In this document: piece by piece, positions 3,294 to 33,307 of the stretch
How positions within the stretch are numbered: position 1 is the first letter of the stretch
Layout: each line of letters opens with the position of its first letter
Assembly: GCA_028877275.1 (NCBI GenBank)
Contig: JAPPFP010000009.1
Span: 354,889 to 418,888 of the forward strand
Direction of reading: 5' to 3'
DNA from: Acidobacteriota bacterium
GTDB lineage: Bacteria; Acidobacteriota; Thermoanaerobaculia; Multivoradales; Multivoraceae
Length of the DNA: 64,000 bases
The notes under the pieces: model-generated
What the model was told of the DNA's origin: nothing
The model's database searches: none
What the model saw: only the letters and a program-made list of their open reading frames with translations
Translations under genes and position numbers: made by a program

Positions 3294-4943
3294 ATGAACC
3301 GTAGACCGCCTTGTGCTCTCGTGGCCGCGATCGTCGTGGCCGTAGCCGCCTGTGAGGTGTCGGGAGACCCCGGGGCTGAGGGTCCGGGCCTGGTCGTCGA
3401 GACCTCCTACGGGGCGGTCGAGGGCGCGGCCGTCGACGACGGCCGCGGCCCCGCCGGCGACGTGCTCGCCTTCCGCGGCATTCCCTACGCCGTACCGCCG
3501 GTGGGCGACCTGCGCTGGCGGCCTCCGCAGCCGCCGGCATCGTGGGAGGGCGTGCGGCCGGCGCTGGAGTCCGGTGCGCCGTGCTGGCAGCGGATCAGTC
3601 CGGACACGTCCATCTGGAGCCGCGGCGAGCTCGACCGCAGCGAGGACTGCCTCTATCTCGATCTGTGGACGGCGTCCGTCGGCGACGCCGATCCGCGGCC
3701 GGTCATGGTCTGGTTCCACGGCGGCAGCCACGAGGTGGGCCACGGTTCGTCGCTCATCTTCGACGGCGCGGCGCTTGCCCGCAAGGGCGTCGTCCTGGTG
3801 TCGATCAACTACCGGCTCGGGTCCTTCGGGTTCCTGGCACACGCCGGGCTGAGTGCCGAGTCGGAGCACGGGTCTTCCGGCAACTACGGCCTGCTCGACA
3901 AGATCGCCGCACTGCGATGGGTGCGGGACAACGCGGCGGCGTTCGGTGGCGACCCGGCGCGAGTGACCATCTTTGGCCAGTCGGCGGGCTCGATGAGCGT
4001 CTGCAGCCTGGTCGCGTCGCCGCTGGCGACCGGTCTGTTCCATCGCGCGATCGGTCAGTCCGCCGGTTGCTTCACTCCGCTCGAGGGCCTGGAGCAGGCG
4101 GAGCGGCGCGGTGTGCTGCTCGCCGACGAGCTGGGCGTCGCGGCGGATGCCGCCGCCGCTGAGATCGCCGCCGCGATGAGGGCCGCTTCGGCCGAGGACG
4201 TGCTGGGCGCCGCCGGCAGTTCCGGGTGGTCCGACGGTTCGAAGACGGTGGTCGACGGCTGGTACCTGCCGGACCAACCGTCGGCGATCTACGCCCGCGG
4301 CGAGCACAACCGTGTACCGATGATGGTGGGCTTCATGGGCGACGAGTCGCGCGCCCTGTTCGCGCCCGGTCCGCCGCTCGAACGCCCGGCGCTCGAACGG
4401 CAGTTGGAGGAGCAGTACGGGAAGGCGGCCGCCGGGCTCCTGGCCGCCTACGCCGCGGAGGCGGAGAAGGCGCCCGGGGCGGTGCCAAGCCTGATCTTCT
4501 CCGACACGATCTTCGGCTGGGGTAGCCGGACCTGGGTCCGCCACGTCGCGGCCGCCGGCGGCGACGCGTACCTCTACTACATCCCGCACGCGCCGCCCGT
4601 GTTCCGGCTCTACCTGCCGGACCGGCCGGACCTGGGCGGCGAGGGCGGTCCGCGCCGGATGGGCGCCTACCATTCCGGCGATCTGGCCTACGTCTTCGGC
4701 AACACCGATCTGGTGGGCATCGACTGGGAGGACTGGGACCACGAGATCGCCGACCTGCTGTCGAGCTACTGGACGAACTTTGCGAAGACCGGTGACCCGA
4801 ACGGCGAGGGGCTTCCGGAGTGGCCGAGATACCGGTCCGAAACCGATCTGGCGCTCGTTGTGCGCGACACGGTCGGTGTCGAGTCGGGTGTGCTGAGAGA
4901 GAAGCTCGACGCCCTGGACGGAGCGCTGGGCGGAGGCGGATAG
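3294..4943 (+). CDS. Type-B carboxylesterase/lipase (para-nitrobenzyl-esterase-like), lipoprotein
   Basis: GQSAGS nucleophile elbow, HGGS oxyanion-hole motif and RGIPYA... N-terminal block typical of the family. Lipobox AVAAC after MNRRPP. The same GCTGGAAGGAGTT leader as the gene at 1222. Confidence 0.85.
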   Translation: MNRRPPCALVAAIVVAVAACEVSGDPGAEGPGLVVETSYGAVEGAAVDDGRGPAGDVLAFRGIPYAVPPVGDLRWRPPQPPASWEGVRPALESGAPCWQRISPDTSIWSRGELDRSEDCLYLDLWTASVGDADPRPVMVWFHGGSHEVGHGSSLIFDGAALARKGVVLVSINYRLGSFGFLAHAGLSAESEHGSSGNYGLLDKIAALRWVRDNAAAFGGDPARVTIFGQSAGSMSVCSLVASPLATGLFHRAIGQSAGCFTPLEGLEQAERRGVLLADELGVAADAAAAEIAAAMRAASAEDVLGAAGSSGWSDGSKTVVDGWYLPDQPSAIYARGEHNRVPMMVGFMGDESRALFAPGPPLERPALERQLEEQYGKAAAGLLAAYAAEAEKAPGAVPSLIFSDTIFGWGSRTWVRHVAAAGGDAYLYYIPHAPPVFRLYLPDRPDLGGEGGPRRMGAYHSGDLAYVFGNTDLVGIDWEDWDHEIADLLSSYWTNFAKTGDPNGEGLPEWPRYRSETDLALVVRDTVGVESGVLREKLDALDGALGGGG

Positions 4944-4951
4944 CTCGTGCC

Positions 4952-6166
4952 ATGACCGCGATTGCCGAGCCACTGCCGGCGGAAGTCGACGATTTCCGGC
5001 AGCGGGCGCTGGAGTTCGCCGAGCGCGAGGTGCTACCGCGGCACGAGCGGCATGGCGCACTGCTCGACGATCCGCGTGAGCGCTACGACGCCGGCGGGCG
5101 ACTCCAACCGGCCGTCGTCGACCTCATCAGGGAAGTACGCACGGCGTCTGCCCGCGAAGGGATTTTCACCGCGTGCGTACCCGAGGAGCTCGGTGGCGGC
5201 GGCCACGGTCATCTGGCCTACTACGCCGGCTGGCAGGCGCTCTTTCACAGTCTGGGGCCGCGGCCGTGGCTTCTGTTGCACGTCCTGGCGCACTGGGCGT
5301 TCGGTCCCAGCCGGCTGCTGTCGCAGCTTTCCGAGCGGGCGCGCGAGCGCTTCCTGCCGGGGTTGATGGATGGCTCGAAGATCATGTGCTTCGGGCTCTC
5401 GGAGCCGGGTGCCGGCTCCGACCTCTCGGCGCTGGCGACGAGAGCGGAGCGGGATGGTGACGGCTGGCGGATCACCGGCCGGAAGATCTGGACCACGCAC
5501 GGACCCATCGCCGACTACTGCGTGCTCTTTGCGCGCACCGGCGAGCAGGGGATCACCGCCTTCATCGTTCCGACCGAGGCTGACGGCTTCCGGAGGATGC
5601 GCGTGGTCGAACTCTTCGGCGACATCGGCGGCGACGAGGCCGAGATCGCGCTGGAGGGCCTGTACGTAGAGCCCTGGCAGGTCATCGGCGAGGTCGACCG
5701 CGGTCTGGCCGCGGCGCTCTACGGTGTGTCGCTCGGCCGCGTCTACAACTCGGCGCGAGCGGTGGGGACCGGTCGTTGGGCGATCGAGACGGCGCTCGCC
5801 TACGCCCAGAAGCGTGAAGCCTTCGGCTCCCCGATCGCCGAGTACCAGGGAGTCAGCTTTCCCCTGGCCGAGTCCGCAACGGAACTCCATGCTGCCCACC
5901 TGATGGGGCGAAACGCTGCCCGGCTGCTCGATGGCGGCAGCCGCGCGATCAAGGAGCTGAGCATGACGAAGGCCTACTCGGTCCAGGTAGGGCTGCGGGC
6001 CGTCGACCGGGCGATGCAGACCCACGGCGCCCTTGGCTTCACGAACGACCTCGGTCTCACCGAGGCCTGGAAGGCGCTCCGGGTTGTCAACGTCGCCGAC
6101 GGCTCGAACGAGATCATGAACCGGATGATCGCCCGCCAGCTACTCCGGGGCGACACCGATCTCTGA
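4952..6166 (+). CDS. Acyl-CoA dehydrogenase family protein
   Basis: ACAD-like layout: N-terminal helical domain, middle block (GLSEPGAGSD) and C-terminal helical domain. ATG at 4952 lies 8 nt after the upstream stop. Confidence 0.8.
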   Translation: MTAIAEPLPAEVDDFRQRALEFAEREVLPRHERHGALLDDPRERYDAGGRLQPAVVDLIREVRTASAREGIFTACVPEELGGGGHGHLAYYAGWQALFHSLGPRPWLLLHVLAHWAFGPSRLLSQLSERARERFLPGLMDGSKIMCFGLSEPGAGSDLSALATRAERDGDGWRITGRKIWTTHGPIADYCVLFARTGEQGITAFIVPTEADGFRRMRVVELFGDIGGDEAEIALEGLYVEPWQVIGEVDRGLAAALYGVSLGRVYNSARAVGTGRWAIETALAYAQKREAFGSPIAEYQGVSFPLAESATELHAAHLMGRNAARLLDGGSRAIKELSMTKAYSVQVGLRAVDRAMQTHGALGFTNDLGLTEAWKALRVVNVADGSNEIMNRMIARQLLRGDTDL

Positions 6167-6176
6167 GGGTGCCTCC

Positions 6177-18829: not shown

Positions 18830-19825
18830 CTAGCCCCGGCGAGCCTGTGCCAGTTCGGCCATGCGGGTGAACAGTTCCTGCATGTGCGTGCGGTCGCCGG
18901 CGCCGCCGCTGAACTCGCGGTACAGGGAGTCGACGTTGATCGCGATCCGCTCGCTGTCGCCCCACGACTCGAAGTCGCCGAGAGCGATGTCGAACGCCGC
19001 GTCGCGCGCGGAAAGCCCCGCGTCGTAGCGCTTTCTCGCCTCGTCGCGGATGTAGACCAGATAGGCGCGCATGGCCTCGACGCCGCGATTGTCGGTGATG
19101 GGACCGTGACCGGGCACGATCGTCTCGAGGTCCCAGCTCAGCAGCAGGTCGCAGGCGTCGATCCAGTTCTGGACGGGGCCCGCCCAGATGATCGGGGCGC
19201 CCTCGATGAACAGGATGTCGCCGGTGAACACGGTCCGGTCGTCGGGGACGTGGACCATGATGTCGCCGCCGGTGTGGGCCGGACCGACCTCGGTCAGCTC
19301 GACGCGCTTGTCGCCCACCGTGAGCGTCAACTGGCCCTCAAAGGTCCGGCTGGGCAGTGTGTGAGTGATCCCCTCGAAGTCGAAGCTGCCGAAGCACTCC
19401 ACCAGAAAGTCGCCGACCAGGCCGCCGTTCTCGCGGGCGCCTCGCATCAGCGCCGCGAGGCCCGCCGGCGTGGTTGCTTCCATCTCGGCGGCCGCGGTCG
19501 CCGACGCGACGATCTCGGCCCCGGCGACGAGTTCGTTGCCGTGCGTGTGGTCCCCGTTCGAGTGGGTGTTCACTAGCCGATCGATGTCGGCGGCGGCGTT
19601 GTGCGCACTCTTCATCGCGGCGAGCATCTCGCGCGTGTTCGGTAGGTCGAACAGGGTGTCGACGAGCAGCGACTCGTCGCCGCTCACGATCAGCCCGGCG
19701 TTGCTCCAGCCCCAGCCTCCGTCCGGCTGCAGCCAGGCGAACGAATTGTTGCCGAGGTCGTGGAGACCCCGTTCGAAGGCGAACCGTGGACTTCCGAGGC
19801 CGGTCCAGGGCGAAGTGTCAAGCAT
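18830..19825 (-). CDS. MBL-fold metallo-hydrolase
   Basis: THSNGDHTHGN (H-x-H-x-D-H), then downstream H and D ligands. Confidence 0.8.
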   Translation of the reverse strand: MLDTSPWTGLGSPRFAFERGLHDLGNNSFAWLQPDGGWGWSNAGLIVSGDESLLVDTLFDLPNTREMLAAMKSAHNAAADIDRLVNTHSNGDHTHGNELVAGAEIVASATAAAEMEATTPAGLAALMRGARENGGLVGDFLVECFGSFDFEGITHTLPSRTFEGQLTLTVGDKRVELTEVGPAHTGGDIMVHVPDDRTVFTGDILFIEGAPIIWAGPVQNWIDACDLLLSWDLETIVPGHGPITDNRGVEAMRAYLVYIRDEARKRYDAGLSARDAAFDIALGDFESWGDSERIAINVDSLYREFSGGAGDRTHMQELFTRMAELAQARRG

Positions 19826-19871
19826 GGGCGCACTTTAGCCAAAACGCCTCGGGCGTAGATACGATTGCGCG

Positions 19872-20273
19872 ATGACTGCCCCGACCGCGGTCGAGCGTTC
19901 CCGGGCCACGCTCGATCTCGACGCGTTCTGGAACTGGCTCGTCCTCCATCCAAACTGCGTCGTCCGGGCCGGATCGGTCGACGCGCTGCTCTGCGACGAC
20001 GAGGACTTCCACTGGCAGTTCGTCGCGGAGGAGAACAACCTCCTCATCGCACAGCTCGTCTACGGCAAGCGCCTGGTGGGAGAGATCCTGATCGACCGCG
20101 AGCGGGTCGCCTACGTCCAGGCTTTCCAGGGGGAGCAGGACGGCGAGTACGTGTTCGAGTTGATCTCGGAGACGGAGCGGGAGCGCACGGCGGCGTGGGT
20201 CTTCGTCATGTCCCACGGCCTGGACGACGAACCCCAGGAGTCGGCTCATTCCACTCCTACGCTGGTTCACTGA
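19872..20273 (+). CDS. Hypothetical protein (133 aa)
   Basis: Strong GC3 bias in this frame. Overlapping alternative-frame ORFs are arginine-rich artefacts. Confidence 0.5.
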   Translation: MTAPTAVERSRATLDLDAFWNWLVLHPNCVVRAGSVDALLCDDEDFHWQFVAEENNLLIAQLVYGKRLVGEILIDRERVAYVQAFQGEQDGEYVFELISETERERTAAWVFVMSHGLDDEPQESAHSTPTLVH

Positions 20274-20324
20274 CGGTCGCACGGACCCAATGGTGGGTGG
20301 GCGCGGGCAGACGGAGGCCCTGAG

Positions 20325-20993
20325 TTGACGCTGCGCATCCTCGGGGTCGTCGACCTGCACTGGTCCGGAAAGAGACCGCCACGGCTGCCGGACCCGTCCG
20401 GCTTCGATCTGGTCCTTCTGGCCGGAGACCTGACGAACTTCCTCGGTCCGGAACACGCCCGCCGCATCGTCGAGCCGCTTCGGGACTCCGGCGTTCCGCT
20501 GCTGGCGGTGTGCGGCAACTGCGATCAGCGGTCGGTGGATGACTACTTCCGCGAGATCGACATCGACCTCGACCGTCGCGCTCGCGTCATCGACGGCGTC
20601 CGCTTCCTCGGTCTCTCCGGCGGTCTCCCCTTCGGTGACCTTCCCTACGAACGGACCGAGGAAGACTACGAGCGGGTGGCCGCCGACACCTTCGAGCAGG
20701 CCGCTGCAGTCGAGGGAAGGCCCACCATCCTGGTCTCCCACCAGCCGCCCTTCGGCACCGCCTGCGACCTGGCCCGCGGCCAGCACGTCGGCTCGACGTC
20801 GCTCCGCGCCGCCGTCGAACGCCACCAGCCCGACCTCGTCTTTTCCGGCCACATCCACGAGTCCATCGGCGCCGGCACGATCGGCCCCACCCGCCTCGTC
20901 AACCCCGGCCCCTGGTTCCAGGGCCGCTCCGTCGTCATCGAAGCCGATCCGGATGCTGGGACCGTCGACTTCGAGATCCGCGCGCCGGACTAG
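20325..20993 (+). CDS. Metallophosphoesterase (calcineurin-like)
   Basis: DLH, GD, GNCD, and GHIH-type motifs in order. TTG start. Confidence 0.7.
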   Translation: MTLRILGVVDLHWSGKRPPRLPDPSGFDLVLLAGDLTNFLGPEHARRIVEPLRDSGVPLLAVCGNCDQRSVDDYFREIDIDLDRRARVIDGVRFLGLSGGLPFGDLPYERTEEDYERVAADTFEQAAAVEGRPTILVSHQPPFGTACDLARGQHVGSTSLRAAVERHQPDLVFSGHIHESIGAGTIGPTRLVNPGPWFQGRSVVIEADPDAGTVDFEIRAPD

Positions 20994-21015
20994 CGGCGCG
21001 CGCGCGGCGCTGTTT

Positions 21016-21218
21016 GGTTCGGGCCGCCTGCCGGCGTGGCCGGAGGGGAGGTTCCCATCGGACGCTCACGCTTGTTGGGTGGACGGGGGTTCAGCGCTCG
21101 CTTCGGTCGGCTGCGCTGCGGTAGGTCGTCGGTCGAGGTGACGGTCTGGGGAGACGCTTGCCTCCAGCCCGCTGGGAACCTCCCCCCGCACTCGCCGGCA
21201 GGCGGCCATCACCGAACC
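21016..21218. repeat. Long imperfect inverted-repeat element: about 36-nt arms (21022-21057 and 21173-21208) around a roughly 115-nt core
   Basis: Arms contain two perfectly complementary blocks, GGCCGCCTGCCGGCG (15 nt) and about 13 nt of GGGGAGGTTCCCA, plus flanking GGTTCGG/CCGAACC. Lies between convergent stops at 20993 and 21209. Internal mini-hairpin CAGCGC...GCGCTG. Confidence 0.5.
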
Positions 21219-22363
21219 CGTCGCAGCCGCGCCACGAGTTCATCGATCGCCGGCAGGTCGACGTTGGCGAAGGCGAGGCGGAGGTAGCGGTCCTGGCCGG
21301 GGCCGAACATGGAGCCGGCGAGGCAGAGGATGCCGTGGTCCTCGGCGAGTTTGCGGCCGACTTCGACGGAGGAGCGGTCGGTGAAGGGGTGGCGGAGGTA
21401 GACGAAGTAGCCGCCGGAGGAGACGACGTCGAAGCCCGTGTTCGCTTCGCGGAGGCGGCGGGCGGCGTAGGCGACGCGGTCGCGGACGGTGCGGCGGTAC
21501 TCCCGCTTCCAGTCGTCGAGGTGCTCGAGGCAGAAGGTGGCCGCCAACTGGCCGATGTGCGACGGGCAGAGGGCTACGCAGTCGGCGATCTTGAGCGTCT
21601 CCCGGAGCAGGGCAGGATTCGTGGCCATGCAGCCGATCCGGTAGCCCGCCATGCAGTAGGCCTTGGAGAAGCTGTAGAGGTGGATCAGCGTCTCACTCCA
21701 GTCGGGACGGGCGAAGAGCGTGTGCGGCGGCTCGGAGTGCTCGCGGAACTCGCGGTAGGTCTCGTCGATCACCAGGACCAGTCCGCGTTCGCGGGCGAGT
21801 TCGAAGAAGCTCTCGATGAGGGCCGGCGGGTAGACAGCGCCGGTCGGGTTGTTCGGCGTCACCAGGACGATCGCGCGTGTTCGGTCGGTGATGGACGCCG
21901 CCGCCCCTTGCGGGTCGGGGAGCATGTCCGGACCGGGCTCCAGGTAGACCGGCTCGACATCCTGGGAACGCAGCCACATGTCGTGGTTGAAGTAGGAGGG
22001 CAGGGGCAGCAGGACCTCGTCACCTGGTTCGGTCAGCGCCATCATCGCCAGGCAGAAGGCCTGGTTGCAGCCGGCGGTGACAGCCATGTGCTCGACGGCT
22101 ACCGGGGCGTCGTAGTCCGCGGTCAGAGCACGGGCCAGCGCTACGCGCAGCTCCGGGACTCCCTGCTGGTCGGTGTAGGTCGCGGTGGCCGGGCTCTGGG
22201 CCTGGGCCGCGATGTGGTTGCGCAGTTCCCGGGCGGGCGGGTAGGTAGGCGCTGCCTGGGAGACGTCGATGAGGGGCAGGTCCGGGGAGGCGTCGTTCTT
22301 CCACCGCCCGACCTGGGTGATCGGCGAATCGATCACCCGATGCACTACCTCCCTGATACGCAT
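21209..22363 (-). CDS. Class I/II PLP-dependent aminotransferase
   Basis: Fold-type-I aminotransferase architecture with SFSKAY lysine motif. Confidence 0.85.
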   Translation of the reverse strand: MRIREVVHRVIDSPITQVGRWKNDASPDLPLIDVSQAAPTYPPARELRNHIAAQAQSPATATYTDQQGVPELRVALARALTADYDAPVAVEHMAVTAGCNQAFCLAMMALTEPGDEVLLPLPSYFNHDMWLRSQDVEPVYLEPGPDMLPDPQGAAASITDRTRAIVLVTPNNPTGAVYPPALIESFFELARERGLVLVIDETYREFREHSEPPHTLFARPDWSETLIHLYSFSKAYCMAGYRIGCMATNPALLRETLKIADCVALCPSHIGQLAATFCLEHLDDWKREYRRTVRDRVAYAARRLREANTGFDVVSSGGYFVYLRHPFTDRSSVEVGRKLAEDHGILCLAGSMFGPGQDRYLRLAFANVDLPAIDELVARLRRVR

Positions 22364-22429
22364 TGAGGGCGTAAGCTACCGGATCGATTCGGCGGCTGCG
22401 GGGTTGACCGGGATGGAGGAAGACGAAGG

Positions 22430-22870
22430 ATGAAGTACCTGCACACGATGGTCCGGGTCCACAGCCTGGAGAAGGCGCTCGACTTCTACTGCGGCAAACT
22501 GGGCATGGTCGAGCTGCGGCGGTTCGACAGCGAGCAGGGGCGGTTCACGCTCGTTTTCCTGGCCGCTCCCTCGGACCTCGAACTCGCTCGCGAGCGGACC
22601 GCGCCGTTGCTCGAGCTGACGCACAACTGGGATCCGGAGGACTACACCGGGGGGCGCAACTTCGGGCATCTCGCCTTCGAGGTCGAGGACATCTACGGCA
22701 CCTGCCGCTCGCTGCAGGAACAGGGCGTTGTCATCAACCGCCCGCCGCGGGACGGTCGCATGGCGTTCATCCGCTCGCCGGACGGGATCTCGATCGAACT
22801 CCTGCAGGCCGGCGGCTCCCTGCCGGTCGAGGAGCCGTGGGCCTCGATGCCGAACGAAGGCACCTGGTAG
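22430..22870 (+). CDS. gloA: Lactoylglutathione lyase-like VOC protein (glyoxalase I)
   Basis: [26 protein letters not shown]..., [20 protein letters not shown]. Confidence 0.75.
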
Positions 22871-22876
22871 TGGCGA

Positions 22877-22895
22877 GGCCGCCGGCCTGGCGGCC
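22877..22895. terminator. Short GC hairpin between convergent genes
   Basis: GGCCGCC ggcct GGCGGCC (7-bp stem) directly after the gloA-like stop. Confidence 0.25.
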
Positions 22896-22918
22896 CGCGC
22901 GCCCAATCTGCGACCGCC

Positions 22919-23311
22919 TCAGTAGTCGGCGTAGTCCTTCTCTTCGACCAGTTCGGAGCCCAGCAGTTCGTTGATGCTCCGTTTGGCCGCGGCGCGCCGG
23001 TCGTTCGTGCGGTAGACCGCCCGCGCGAGTTCGATGAAGCGCTCGCCGAAGTCGCCGTTCCGCTCGCAGTCGCGGATGTCGTCCTCGATCTCCCACAGCC
23101 GCTCGTTGATCCGGCGCAGTTCCGTGGTGAACTCGTCGAGCTCAGGCGAGGCGTCCAGCGCTTCTTCGCGAGTGGCGGTCAGGCTCCGCAGCTCGCGGTG
23201 GACGTTGGCGAGCTTCCGCGGGTCGGCGATCCGCTCGGCCTTGATCTCGAGGATCGTGATCTTGTCGATCAACTCGCCCGGCGACACTTCGACCTGCAGC
23301 ACGGTCCCCAC
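22919..23311 (-). CDS. Conserved hypothetical protein often found beside glycosyltransferases (DUF6165-like, by recollection)
   Basis: 130 aa, acidic, coding-biased frame. Lies directly downstream of a GT4 gene. Confidence 0.5.
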   Translation of the reverse strand: MGTVLQVEVSPGELIDKITILEIKAERIADPRKLANVHRELRSLTATREEALDASPELDEFTTELRRINERLWEIEDDIRDCERNGDFGERFIELARAVYRTNDRRAAAKRSINELLGSELVEEKDYADY

Positions 23312-31219: not shown

Positions 31220-32152
31220 ATGGATCGGGTGCGCACGGTTCGGGACGTCCTGCTGCGCCCGACGGCCGAGAACGAACTCCCGCGTCTCTCCGAACTGACG
31301 GAGGTCGTCTACGGCGTCCGGCGCGAGCCGGAGGTGCTGCGCTGGCTTCTCTTCCATTCCGGTCCGGGGCCGGAGGTCGAGTCTTCCGTCGCCGAACGGC
31401 ATGGCCGAATCGTCGGCCACGTGGCTTCGTTGCACTGCCGCTACCGGATCCATGGCGGAACGGTGACGGGTGCTCACCGGATGCTGTGGATGGTTGAACA
31501 CGCCGCGAGGGGCAGGGCCGGCGTCCCCCTTGCCGGTCGCACCCCCGACACGGACTTCGAGGTCGTGCTCGGCGGCACCGCCGCCACCAAGGCGATGCTG
31601 GTCATGCGCGGATTCCGCGAGGCCGGCGAAGCGCTCGAAGTACGTCTGAGCACCGCGGCGCCGGGCCCCGCCACGACCAGGCCGACCGGCCTGGAGCTGG
31701 TCAACTTCGATCCTGCCGCGGTCGGCCCGGTCGCTCCTCCGGACACGCTGGTCAATCTCGCCGAGCCCGACCACCTGACGTGGCTGGCGGCCTGTCCGGA
31801 GCACGACGGACTACTGTTCACCCTGGAACGCTCGGGCGAGCCGCTGGGTCCGGTCCTGCTCTACGTCAACCGGGCGAACGATCCGCCCACCGGCCGGATC
31901 GTCCACATGCCGTGGCTTGAAGACGATGCGGATCTGGCGCTGCTTGCCCTCCTCGACCGATTGGGCCGGGAAGGCTGCGCCGAGGCGACCATCCTGACCA
32001 CGGAAGAGGGCCTGTTGCGGGCCACGGAGTCGCTAGGGGGCGAGGTCTTCTACAGGCGTCCGCTCTGGTTCCGCAACCCGAACGGCGCGGTCGAGCCTGC
32101 CCGCTTCTTTCTCACCTACATGGAGGGGGACCTCGCCTACCGGCGGGTATAG
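31220..32152 (+). CDS. GNAT-fold acyltransferase (FemAB/BioF2-like), hypothetical
   Basis: ATG at 31220, 12 nt after the upstream stop. Coding bias. Weak family resemblance only. Confidence 0.45.
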   Translation: MDRVRTVRDVLLRPTAENELPRLSELTEVVYGVRREPEVLRWLLFHSGPGPEVESSVAERHGRIVGHVASLHCRYRIHGGTVTGAHRMLWMVEHAARGRAGVPLAGRTPDTDFEVVLGGTAATKAMLVMRGFREAGEALEVRLSTAAPGPATTRPTGLELVNFDPAAVGPVAPPDTLVNLAEPDHLTWLAACPEHDGLLFTLERSGEPLGPVLLYVNRANDPPTGRIVHMPWLEDDADLALLALLDRLGREGCAEATILTTEEGLLRATESLGGEVFYRRPLWFRNPNGAVEPARFFLTYMEGDLAYRRV

Positions 32153-32158
32153 AGGTGG

Positions 32159-33307
32159 CTACCCGTGCGGCGTCACGAGGTACTTCTCGCCGGTCGCCTG
32201 CTTCGCGTAGACCGCGATGGACGCCGGGTCGAGAGCCTGCCGCAGGGTGATCGTCTTCGCGTAGCTCGACGCGAACGTCGTCGTGATCTCGGCGGCGACC
32301 CGCTTGCGGAGGCGTTCCGAGGCCTCGTAGCCGATGCGGCGCAGGAAGTGGGGCAGCAGCCAGCCGCCCAGGCCCCAGGCCATGCCGAAGTTGCGGGTCA
32401 GGACGGTCTGTCTGCGGTCGAGTCCGCCGTAGATGTAGACCTGCTTGAGTGTCGCCGAGCCGTAGCGGCTGTACTCGGGAGCGTTGGCGGAGAGCGCCGC
32501 CTCCATCGCGGTCAGGATCTGGCCGGCCAGCACACCGCCGCCGGTGGCGTCGAAGCCGAGCGTGGCAGAGGTCGCCGCGAGGGCGGCAATCAGGTCGGCC
32601 ATGAAGGTCTCGGAACTCGAGTTCACGACGTGGGTGGCGCCGATGCCGCGCAGGAGTTCCTCGTGTTCCTGCCGGCGGACGACGTTGACCAGCGGCACGC
32701 CGTCCGCGGTGCAGATCTTCTGGAGCATCTGGCCGAGGTTGGAGGCGGCGGCGGTGTGGACCAGGGCGGTGTGGCCCTCGAGGCGCATCGTTTCGACCAT
32801 GCCCAGGGCGGTCAGCGGGTTGACGAAGCAGGAGGCTCCTTCCGCGGGTGTCGTGCCCTCGGGCAGCGACAGGCACTGCCGGGCCTCGGCCAGCCGGTAC
32901 TCCGCGTACATCGAGCCGCCGAGGACGGCAACCGTGCGGCCGATCAGGGCCTGGGCGGCCGGCGACGAGCCGGCGGCGACGACGACGCCGGCGCCCTCGT
33001 TGCCGGTCGGTATTGCCTGGTCGAGACGACCGGCCACCAGCCGCGCCAGTCCCTTGGGGAGGTCGGCGACTACGACCGGGCCGTGCTCGCCGTTCGAGGC
33101 GCGGACCGTGGAGACGTCGGCCGGACCGAACAGCACGCCCAGGTCGGACGGGTTGATCGGCGACGCCTCGACGCGGATCACGACCTGGTCCGGTCCGGGT
33201 TCGGGTACCGGGACCCTGATCAGCGCCAGTTCGACGGTGCCGCCGCCGCTATCGTCGGCGCGGATCGTGGAGTGGAGTGTCAGGCCATCGGCGGGAAGTT
33301 CGGTCAT
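32159..33307 (-). CDS. MDR-superfamily oxidoreductase (quinone-oxidoreductase/alcohol-dehydrogenase-like)
   Basis: GroES-like N-domain plus Rossmann domain pattern. Confidence 0.75.
   Translation of the reverse strand: MTELPADGLTLHSTIRADDSGGGTVELALIRVPVPEPGPDQVVIRVEASPINPSDLGVLFGPADVSTVRASNGEHGPVVVADLPKGLARLVAGRLDQAIPTGNEGAGVVVAAGSSPAAQALIGRTVAVLGGSMYAEYRLAEARQCLSLPEGTTPAEGASCFVNPLTALGMVETMRLEGHTALVHTAAASNLGQMLQKICTADGVPLVNVVRRQEHEELLRGIGATHVVNSSSETFMADLIAALAATSATLGFDATGGGVLAGQILTAMEAALSANAPEYSRYGSATLKQVYIYGGLDRRQTVLTRNFGMAWGLGGWLLPHFLRRIGYEASERLRKRVAAEITTTFASSYAKTITLRQALDPASIAVYAKQATGEKYLVTPHG

Follow-up and report, generated by a model that had tools for sequence, protein, structure and literature searches.

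ERIC, Correia/NEMIS, RUP and BOX are structured intergenic palindromic repeats. ERIC- and Correia-type elements are non-coding imperfect palindromes of 100-200 nt that are found intergenically at the ends of genes in either orientation, form a long stem-loop if transcribed, and vary in presence and absence between relatives; the repeat described here resembles them in each of these properties. Of the known systems its behaviour is closest to that of these palindromes, with a single point of likeness to REPIN-RAYT systems or pdif modules. However, it is unrelated in sequence to ERIC, Correia/NEMIS, RUP and BOX and its detected copy number is low; unlike an ERIC-type element it has a core with two extra covarying helices and invariant junction blocks, and it recurs as inverted pairs around variable cargo with no TA-type target duplication visible.

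The likeness to REPIN-RAYT systems consists of a vertically inherited single-copy gene (here designated X417) between two inverted hairpin repeats that are also present elsewhere in the genome, and of hairpin pairing that is kept through compensatory change. In contrast to a RAYT, X417 has an RNase H/RuvC fold (DUF429-like) and not that of a Y1 HUH transposase, the repeat is a branched unit of ~185 nt and not a doublet of 20-25-nt REPs, the genes between other pairs are unrelated, and only 1-3 copies per genome were detected, with no sign of hundreds; the size and branching of the unit and the fold of the flanked gene place it outside the REP/REPIN-RAYT class. Like the pdif sites of Acinetobacter plasmids and the attC sites of integrons, the repeat bounds small accessory modules (toxin-antitoxin, defence candidates, unknown genes) with imperfect palindromes; as with pdif, the sites are in inverted orientation around the module, and as with attC, structure is kept over sequence. 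However, the element contains no 28-bp XerC/XerD site as in pdif and no RYYYAAC/GTTRRRY core sites as in attC, its sites are ~185 nt long with no integrase seen nearby, and its conserved core and variable outer stem are the reverse of attC. It was not classified as attC: its stem bases are CCAG.../...CGG, its centre is conserved, and its pairs are inverted, not direct. A ~180-nt structured element adjoining a RuvC-fold gene at the border of an insert also recalls the IS110 bridge RNA and the omega RNAs of TnpB and IscB, but none of those domains is present, the element also occurs solo or with other cargo, and it has no match in Rfam. A guide RNA of either kind was rejected, there being no adjacent IS110 (DEDD + Tnp), TnpB or IscB gene and no complementarity of the variable segments to the flanks.

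Thermoanaerobaculia are uncultured, abundant Acidobacteriota, and we know of nothing on their mobile DNA or non-coding RNAs. The inverted repeat at issue lies in a window (the whole stretch of DNA that was analysed, 64 kb) and may be a solo, chimeric copy of a lineage-specific family of ~185-nt structured palindromic repeats that form the borders of accessory-gene cassettes in Thermoanaerobaculia, a reading to which we give an even chance. Judged by Rfam and by the searchable literature, where a search on repeats and MITEs of Thermoanaerobaculia or Acidobacteriota found nothing relevant, the family appears to be previously undescribed. Its behaviour (location at the borders of variable toxin-antitoxin, defence-candidate and nuclease cassettes, with apparent arm-mediated deletion and inversion) matches no described element exactly. 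The family is a candidate new structured RNA or recombination site, and a potential marker for accessory-gene hotspots in Thermoanaerobaculia genomes.

The inverted repeat between two convergent genes

The original prediction, made from the window alone, was of a ~200-bp inverted repeat between convergent genes with perfectly complementary blocks of 15 and about 13 nt. Sequence inspection and a repeat search both place it at 21012-21217. GGCCGCCTGCCGGCG at 21022-21036 is the exact complement of 21193-21207 (15 nt), GGGGAGGTTCCCA at 21045-21057 is the exact complement of 21173-21185 (13 nt; an extended version of 17 nt is complementary at 94%), and the full arms at 21012-21047 and 21182-21217 (36 nt) are 78% complementary. 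The flanking runs that were said to reach the end of the minus-strand aminotransferase gene are likewise present: GGTTCGG (21017-21023) pairs with CCGAACC (21212-21218), which overlaps the final codons of that gene (stop codon 21209-21211). The element fills the 215-nt gap between the two genes, which are convergent since the aminotransferase is on the minus strand and the metallophosphoesterase on the plus strand:

20325-20993, plus strand: metallophosphoesterase (Pfam PF00149 and PF12850), convergent with the aminotransferase
21209-22363, minus strand: class I/II aminotransferase (Pfam Aminotran_1_2, PF00155, E = 2e-47); stop codon abutting the element, last codons (GGTTCGG) pairing with a CCGAACC-like trailer

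Just outside the element, at 20992-21011, a palindrome consisting only of G and C, AGCGGCGCGCGCGCGGCGCT, lies over the metallophosphoesterase stop codon and is conserved in syntenic copies.

That so long an inverted repeat is unlikely by chance was borne out by folding. The plus strand folds at -132.5 kcal/mol compared with -105.2 ± 5.0 kcal/mol for dinucleotide shuffles (z = -5.45), the minus strand gives z = -5.88 against dinucleotide shuffles, and 0 of 200 shuffles of each strand fold as well. The small core hairpin CAGCGC...GCGCTG that had been noticed is present in the window copy, but the pairing conserved in the family is a different one (helices P3 and P4, below). The view that the repeat has no embedded coding potential is upheld: the 83-aa ORF at 21036-21287 has no Pfam match, no reading frame is consistently kept across copies beyond the expectation for G+C-rich DNA, and coding potential was rejected because no frame is specifically conserved and base composition accounts for the one that is open on the G-rich strand.

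No second copy was found in the 64-kb window by BLAST, arm-pattern searches, nhmmer or a covariance model (R1) with filters off. The calibration of R1 was shortened and the window is 69% G+C, which makes its E-values far too optimistic (342 matches at E ≤ 10 with filters off); therefore, bit scores alone are trusted. A 16-bit match of the model at 32017-32162 was rejected as a copy, being within an ORF and without any of the conserved blocks. A search for known structured RNAs came back empty: Rfam 15 has no match in the whole window at gathering scores, and at E ≤ 10 the sole match in 20900-21350 is a chance one to Ms_IGR-2 (14.5 bits; gathering score 45). ARAGORN identified no tRNA or tmRNA gene in 19000-23000, and a scan for sigma-70-like promoters returned no sites, although promoters of this phylum may differ from the scanned consensus.

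Dispersed copies and their conserved fold

Beyond the window, nhmmer and the covariance model identified 27 related copies in at least six genomic contexts (the aminotransferase locus, L004, L008, L006/L009/L013, L014/L018, and the locus shared by L015-L017; L numbers designate the sequences compared) in Thermoanaerobaculia/"Holophagales" MAGs and metagenomes. When 185,579 species genomes were scanned for the pair of inner-arm words at its proper distance, ten loci matched, eight of them in Thermoanaerobaculia, "Holophagales" and Candidatus Multivorans MAGs. The two core blocks were found on five contigs in JGI metagenomes, three of which carry two inverted copies. The number of copies detected per genome is 1-3 (the SB0666_bin_22 MAG has at least three at two loci), a count that comes from matches to an inner-arm pattern fitting only ~45% of known copies. 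Many of the genomes with the repeat are from sponge and marine metagenomes; the element has no BLAST match in plasmid and phage collections, and a pattern scan of IMG/VR gave zero matches. The repeat is not specific to one locus; the window contains a single copy.

Two Verrucomicrobiia sequences (L007 and L011) were rejected as family members, having the stem word alone in common. Each begins with an identical 126-nt hairpin repeat (13-138 in both) at the very start of a contig of a Verrucomicrobiia MAG; its stem begins GGAGGTTCCCAG like the ~185-nt family and its core is unrelated. This hairpin is probably a separate multi-copy palindromic repeat that breaks assembly.

The dispersal bears on the suggestion that the hairpin is a bidirectional terminator specific to these two convergent genes and nothing more, which we regard as highly improbable. 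Its position exactly between the convergent stop codons and the great stability of its stem are as expected of such a terminator, but the same sequence is found at unrelated loci, between co-directional genes and around cassettes, and the orthologous gap in L021 is only 60 nt with no element. There is no T/U run after the stem on either strand, and a scan of 20600-21600 detected no terminator-like site (hairpin plus T-run), so that the element does not qualify as an intrinsic (Rho-independent) terminator. Because the family is dispersed in either orientation and lacks a U-tract, a gene-specific terminator is excluded as the sole explanation.

Two alignments of the family (A1, 20 copies; A3, 21 copies) were folded with RNAalifold. 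The consensus consists of a closing stem of at least 26 pairs, two internal helices (P3 and P4) and invariant unpaired blocks. Arms of 35-52 nt that are complementary to each other are found in every copy, and a canonical copy has a 14-nt leader (..CCGACGACGTCCAG) before the stem and CGG(GTG) after it. In A1 and A3, variation is greatest in the outer stem and conservation is greatest in the core; the outer stem sequence differs by copy (GCCTGCCGGCG, GTCCGCGACGG, GCCTCGGCCAGG) with complementarity kept. P3 (GGCAAGCG / CGCAGCC) encloses a 37-nt segment of fixed length and variable sequence, the family-level junction GACCGMA is unpaired within CGACCGMAGCGA and varies at one position, and P4 (GCGAGCGC / GCGCGAGC in the family alignment) closes a 22-nt C-rich loop. 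The family orientation corresponds to the minus strand of the window, where the parts, with coordinates mapped from alignment columns, are as follows:

21024-21205, minus strand: whole element, stem base to stem base (R1 match at 21020-21206 on the minus strand, 152 bits, the only real one in 64 kb; nhmmer E = 3e-46)
21188-21205, minus strand: 5′ outer arm with 'type A' spacer (CCGCCTGCCGGCG AGTGC), attributed to border copy 1 of an ancestral [copy 1]-X417-[copy 2] cassette
21167-21187, minus strand: 5′ strand of P2, the inner closing stem (GGGGGGAGGTTCCCAGCGGGC; 98% of cells paired across 26 pairs, of which 13 have double changes)
21155-21162, minus strand: 5′ strand of P3 (GGCAAGCG), pairing with 21109-21115 (100% of cells paired)
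21116-21154, minus strand: variable segment inside P3, of constant length (~37 nt; 36-37 nt in 17 copies) and variable sequence in A1 and A3
21109-21115, minus strand: 3′ strand of P3 (CGCAGCC), covarying with the 5′ strand
21102-21108, minus strand: unpaired junction GACCGAA within the block CGACCGMAGCGA, invariant except for one position in A1 and A3
21064-21101, minus strand: P4 (GCGAGCGC / GCGTGAGC) with its 22-nt C-rich loop TGAACCCCCGTCCACCCAACAA; compensatory sets, 100% of cells paired
21042-21063, minus strand: 3′ strand of P2 (GTCCGATGGGAACCTCCCCTCC), covarying with the 5′ strand
21024-21041, minus strand: 3′ outer arm with 'type B' spacer (GGCCACGCCGGCAGGCGG), attributed to border copy 2; it matches the copy 2 arms (GGGCCGGA spacer) of L001, L002, L005 and L012

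The pairing is strongly maintained. Canonical pairs make up 98.6% of the 797 pair cells in A3, compared with 86.9 ± 0.7% in column shuffles and 34-47% when the registers are slid by 1-3 columns. Double-sided changes affect 16 of the 38 pairs, including pairs of P3 and P4, and number 104 cells versus 31 in shuffles (a count of 104 is reached by 0 of 500 shuffles); A1 gives the same picture. In P3, a change of GGC to GCC is matched by a change of GCC to GGC in three copies, and P4 has the compensatory sets GCGC/GCGC, GCAC/GUGC and CCCC/GGGG. Compensation in the closing stem could reflect gene conversion between the arms during inversions, not selection, but P3 and P4 are exempt: they are inside the core, and therefore recombination between the arms does not explain their compensation. 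We take the branched fold to be under selection. This support from covariation is as strong as that of many curated RNA families, and is what would be expected of a structured RNA, one of the options first raised for the repeat. Variable segments of 17 copies were compared with their flanks (±200 nt), and no matches of at least 9 nt were found beyond those of shuffled controls.

Both border copies of L027 (2695-2860 and 4309-4564) contain the same ~75-nt double-hairpin insert (GGGTGGCGCGATCCGCGCCACCC, CCGTGCGCCCGTCATCGGGCGCACGG), with identical placement and orientation within conserved block 3. The insert could be a nested mini-palindrome that prefers this site; alternatively, gene conversion may have occurred between the two copies.

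Cassettes bordered by inverted pairs and the origin of the window copy

The aminotransferase of the window belongs to a graded series of orthologues with up to 100% identity (an Acidobacteriota MAG protein). The gap between the aminotransferase and metallophosphoesterase genes of these relatives contains the following:

L001: the 417-aa X417, then the element
L002: a truncated X417 between two inverted copies
L022: X417 (77% identity), then a copy
L023/L024: X417 (65% identity), then a copy, with a diverged inverted copy before X417
L027: X417 (58% identity), then a copy, with a diverged inverted copy before X417
L005 and L012: copy 2 alone
L003: a 5′ fragment of the element
L019: a 3′ fragment of the element
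L021: 60 nt with no element
L020: a different island

In L022 (2289-2938) and L027 (1868-2517), a FitA-like RHH/PIN toxin-antitoxin pair lies between the aminotransferase and X417. In L020, a fragment that reads like an IS3-family transposase (..WVADITYVPT..) is located downstream of the orthologous aminotransferase (3674-6173), and a 1132-aa YjiT_N/YjiT_2nd gene is found where the metallophosphoesterase would be. The 3′ flank of this aminotransferase gene is a recurrent insertion hotspot.

The window copy is composite: the outer arm and spacer of copy 1 are joined to the core and right arm of copy 2. Its spacer AGTGCGG matches the aminotransferase-side arm of copy 1 in L002 and remnants in L003 and L023, and its left flank GTGATGGCCGCCTG corresponds to GTGACACCCGCCTG in L002, L003, L019 and L023. 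Its core is 94% identical to copy 2 of L001, its right arm has the copy 2 spacer GGCCGGA, and the canonical leader ..CGTCCAG is absent. Copies 1 and 2 carry their left arms as a direct repeat, and through recombination inside GGGGAGGTTCCCA the core and right arm of copy 1, X417 and the left arm of copy 2 would have been lost. From the arrangements of extant relatives, we infer that the window copy is the product of an old deletion in an ancestral [copy 1, inverted]-X417-[copy 2]. Such an arm-to-arm deletion would account for the two perfect blocks with a mismatched spacer between them (the "imperfect" terminal inverted repeats of the original prediction) and for the missing leader, and the GGTTCGG/CCGAACC pair would be due to the homologous trailers of copy 1 and copy 2. 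The hairpin of the window would then be a relic or scar and not an intact member of the family, which would explain the absence of a gene that is present in close relatives. L001, by the same comparison, appears to have lost copy 1 between its own arms. MITE, terminator and structured RNA had been listed as options for the repeat; repetition and structure are confirmed, but a chimera derived by deletion of a cassette was not visible from the window alone.

Between the window (21300-22900) and L001, the aminotransferase gene and a glyoxalase gene are 95-100% identical, compared with 80-90% on both sides, and the tract ends at the element. This suggests a recent recombination patch that may be bounded by the element.

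Across the family, copies were found either solo or as inverted pairs with their leaders facing variable cargo. Inverted pairs with both leaders toward the enclosed DNA occur in L002, L008, L015-L017, L023/L024 and L027, and the cargo is, depending on the locus, X417, a 206-aa TPR protein or a PDC-S11-like nuclease. The last is PD-(D/E)xK-like, 422 aa long, matched by PDC-S11, a PADLOC defence candidate, and accompanied by a 117-aa ORF. It is complete in L015 (cargo at 597-2433), has frameshifts in L016 and survives in L017 only as its last ~40 codons, a series that we read as stepwise decay of a defence-candidate cassette at one site. L014 and L018 have a common 3′ flank, and on the leader side their sequences are unrelated from precisely the leader onward; the leader-side ORF of L018 is one that we take, by eye, to be HicB-antitoxin-like. 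The arms would provide portable homology for deletions, inversions and the exchange of cassettes.

The repeat was also considered as a classical MITE or the end of a DNA transposon, with arms of 35-50 bp serving as terminal inverted repeats for a transposase encoded elsewhere and pairs forming composite MITE-flanked mobile units. Complementary arms are indeed present in every copy, copies are dispersed over unrelated loci (at least six) with variable presence and absence, inverted pairs enclose foreign-looking cargo of lower G+C content, and both L027 copies contain a nested mini-palindrome. However, conservation is highest in the core and lowest in the outermost stem, the reverse of what is expected of terminal inverted repeats bound by a transposase, and the conserved termini matching a parent transposon that define a MITE were not found. 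No transposase domain was detected in the cargo between paired copies, nor could a parent transposase be recognised. In the aligned flanks, which include no clean pair of an empty and a filled site to fix the boundaries, no target-site duplication was visible as a direct repeat beside the stems or beside the leader and trailer. Furthermore, [copy 1]-X417-[copy 2] keeps to a single syntenic site even as the identity of X417 falls to 58%, and there is one copy in 64 kb and 1-3 detected per genome. We consider a MITE improbable and continue to prefer recombining border repeats.

An inversion was observed in L013, where a 183-nt stem-and-core segment is reversed relative to L009 and L006 with 98.9% identity and collinear flanks. 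Inverted repeats flanking a segment that is seen in both orientations are characteristic of an inverton, in which the expression of neighbouring genes would be changed through inversion of the 110-nt core, catalysed between the arms by a site-specific invertase. Against this, the sigma-70 scan found no promoter-like site in the core, no tyrosine recombinase or integrase (or other recombinase) was found among the annotated immediate neighbours of copies, the inversion is the only one among 27 copies, and the covarying internal helices are left unexplained; the inverton has very little probability in our estimation.

X417 is the cargo for which a partnership with the repeat can be proposed. This 417-aa gene encodes a DUF429-like zinc-finger protein with a RuvC fold; it has no match in Pfam, NCBIfam, PADLOC or PDB sequences, but a few of its 372 homologues are annotated as DUF429, and its fold (RNase H/RuvC) is nearest to those of junction resolvases. 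Published work assigns DUF429 to the RuvC/RuvX clade of the RNase H-like superfamily and regards it as a nuclease that is probably active but not mobile (PMC3985635); the annotation of X417 relatives agrees with this. Syntenic X417 genes of 58-100% identity are found in L001, L002, L010, L022, L023/L024 and L027. In the manner of REPIN-RAYT systems, the elements could be recognition or recombination sites, or partner RNAs, of X417, which would process and spread the hairpins while other copies are dispersed substrates. Copies border X417 in the Thermoanaerobaculia loci that have it (as inverted pairs in L002, L023/L024 and L027), the fold is closest to junction resolvases, and the RuvC/RuvX placement of DUF429 predicts an active nuclease (PMC3985635). 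On the other hand, homologues in other lineages (L025 and L026) have no such flanks, other pairs enclose unrelated cargo, the variable segments are not complementary to their flanks, and DUF429 was judged non-mobile (PMC3985635), so the partnership has only a slim chance of being correct. As a universal partner of the repeat X417 was rejected, because L025 and L026 have neither a flanking repeat nor a flanking structure; thus, the repeat is not a general partner of the protein family.

A bolder proposal, to which we assign a similarly slim chance, is that the family represents a new class of structured RNA (or of single-stranded DNA site that folds) and has X417 as its partner, a resolvase-like nuclease recognising branched hairpins at cassette borders and driving insertion, exchange or inversion of cassettes. 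If so, cassettes would be shuffled by a system that is neither an integron nor an Xer/dif module nor a known transposon, and the window copy would be the scar at the place from which the gene of that system, X417, was excised.

Strand, constraint and possible roles of the fold

The strand on which the fold acts was addressed by two signals. Among pairs common to the predictions for both strands, there are 21 G·U-compatible cells on the family strand compared with 15 on its opposite, whereas the folding energy of single sequences favours the G-rich strand, opposite to the family strand; neither the G·U versus A·C counts nor the folding energy assigns the strand. The orientation of the element relative to host genes is not fixed. 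In inverted pairs, by construction, cassette genes read into the family strand and host genes into the opposite strand. Orthologous copies are 75-94% identical, compared with 68-78% at third codon positions of a neighbouring gene; these identities are only modestly apart, indicating that overall constraint is modest and concentrated in the blocks and the pairing.

A rival reading of the repeats is a family of independent, trans-acting sibling sRNAs, each with the closing stem as an RNase III-type processing stalk and the core as the mature RNA; the C-rich loop of P4 (CCYUCC..UCACC, resembling an anti-Shine-Dalgarno sequence) would pair with purine-rich sites of mRNAs. Covarying internal helices, invariant junction nucleotides, a C/U-rich P4 loop that is partly conserved across paralogues, and the low number of copies detected per genome are all consistent with sRNAs. 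However, there is no conserved promoter: DNA upstream of the 14-nt leader is unrelated between copies, and no sigma-70-like site or terminator was found in the scans. Copies decay freely at the aminotransferase locus, the core is inverted relative to its flanks in L013, the strand signals conflict, and the leader is missing from the window copy. On balance, independent sRNAs are rather unlikely.

For border repeats of cassettes, our leading guess is that the fold has a role at the transcript level. The 35-50-bp closing stem would be a processed or protective structure at the 3′ ends of transcripts of both the cassette and the converging host genes, enclosing a conserved core RNA, and the branched fold would be needed for whatever propagates or uses the element. 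In the window, what is left of the element most likely serves today as no more than a highly stable two-way hairpin between the convergent genes. The element appears to decay when it is not maintained, as judged from the aminotransferase locus, where L003 and L019 retain fragments and L021 retains none.
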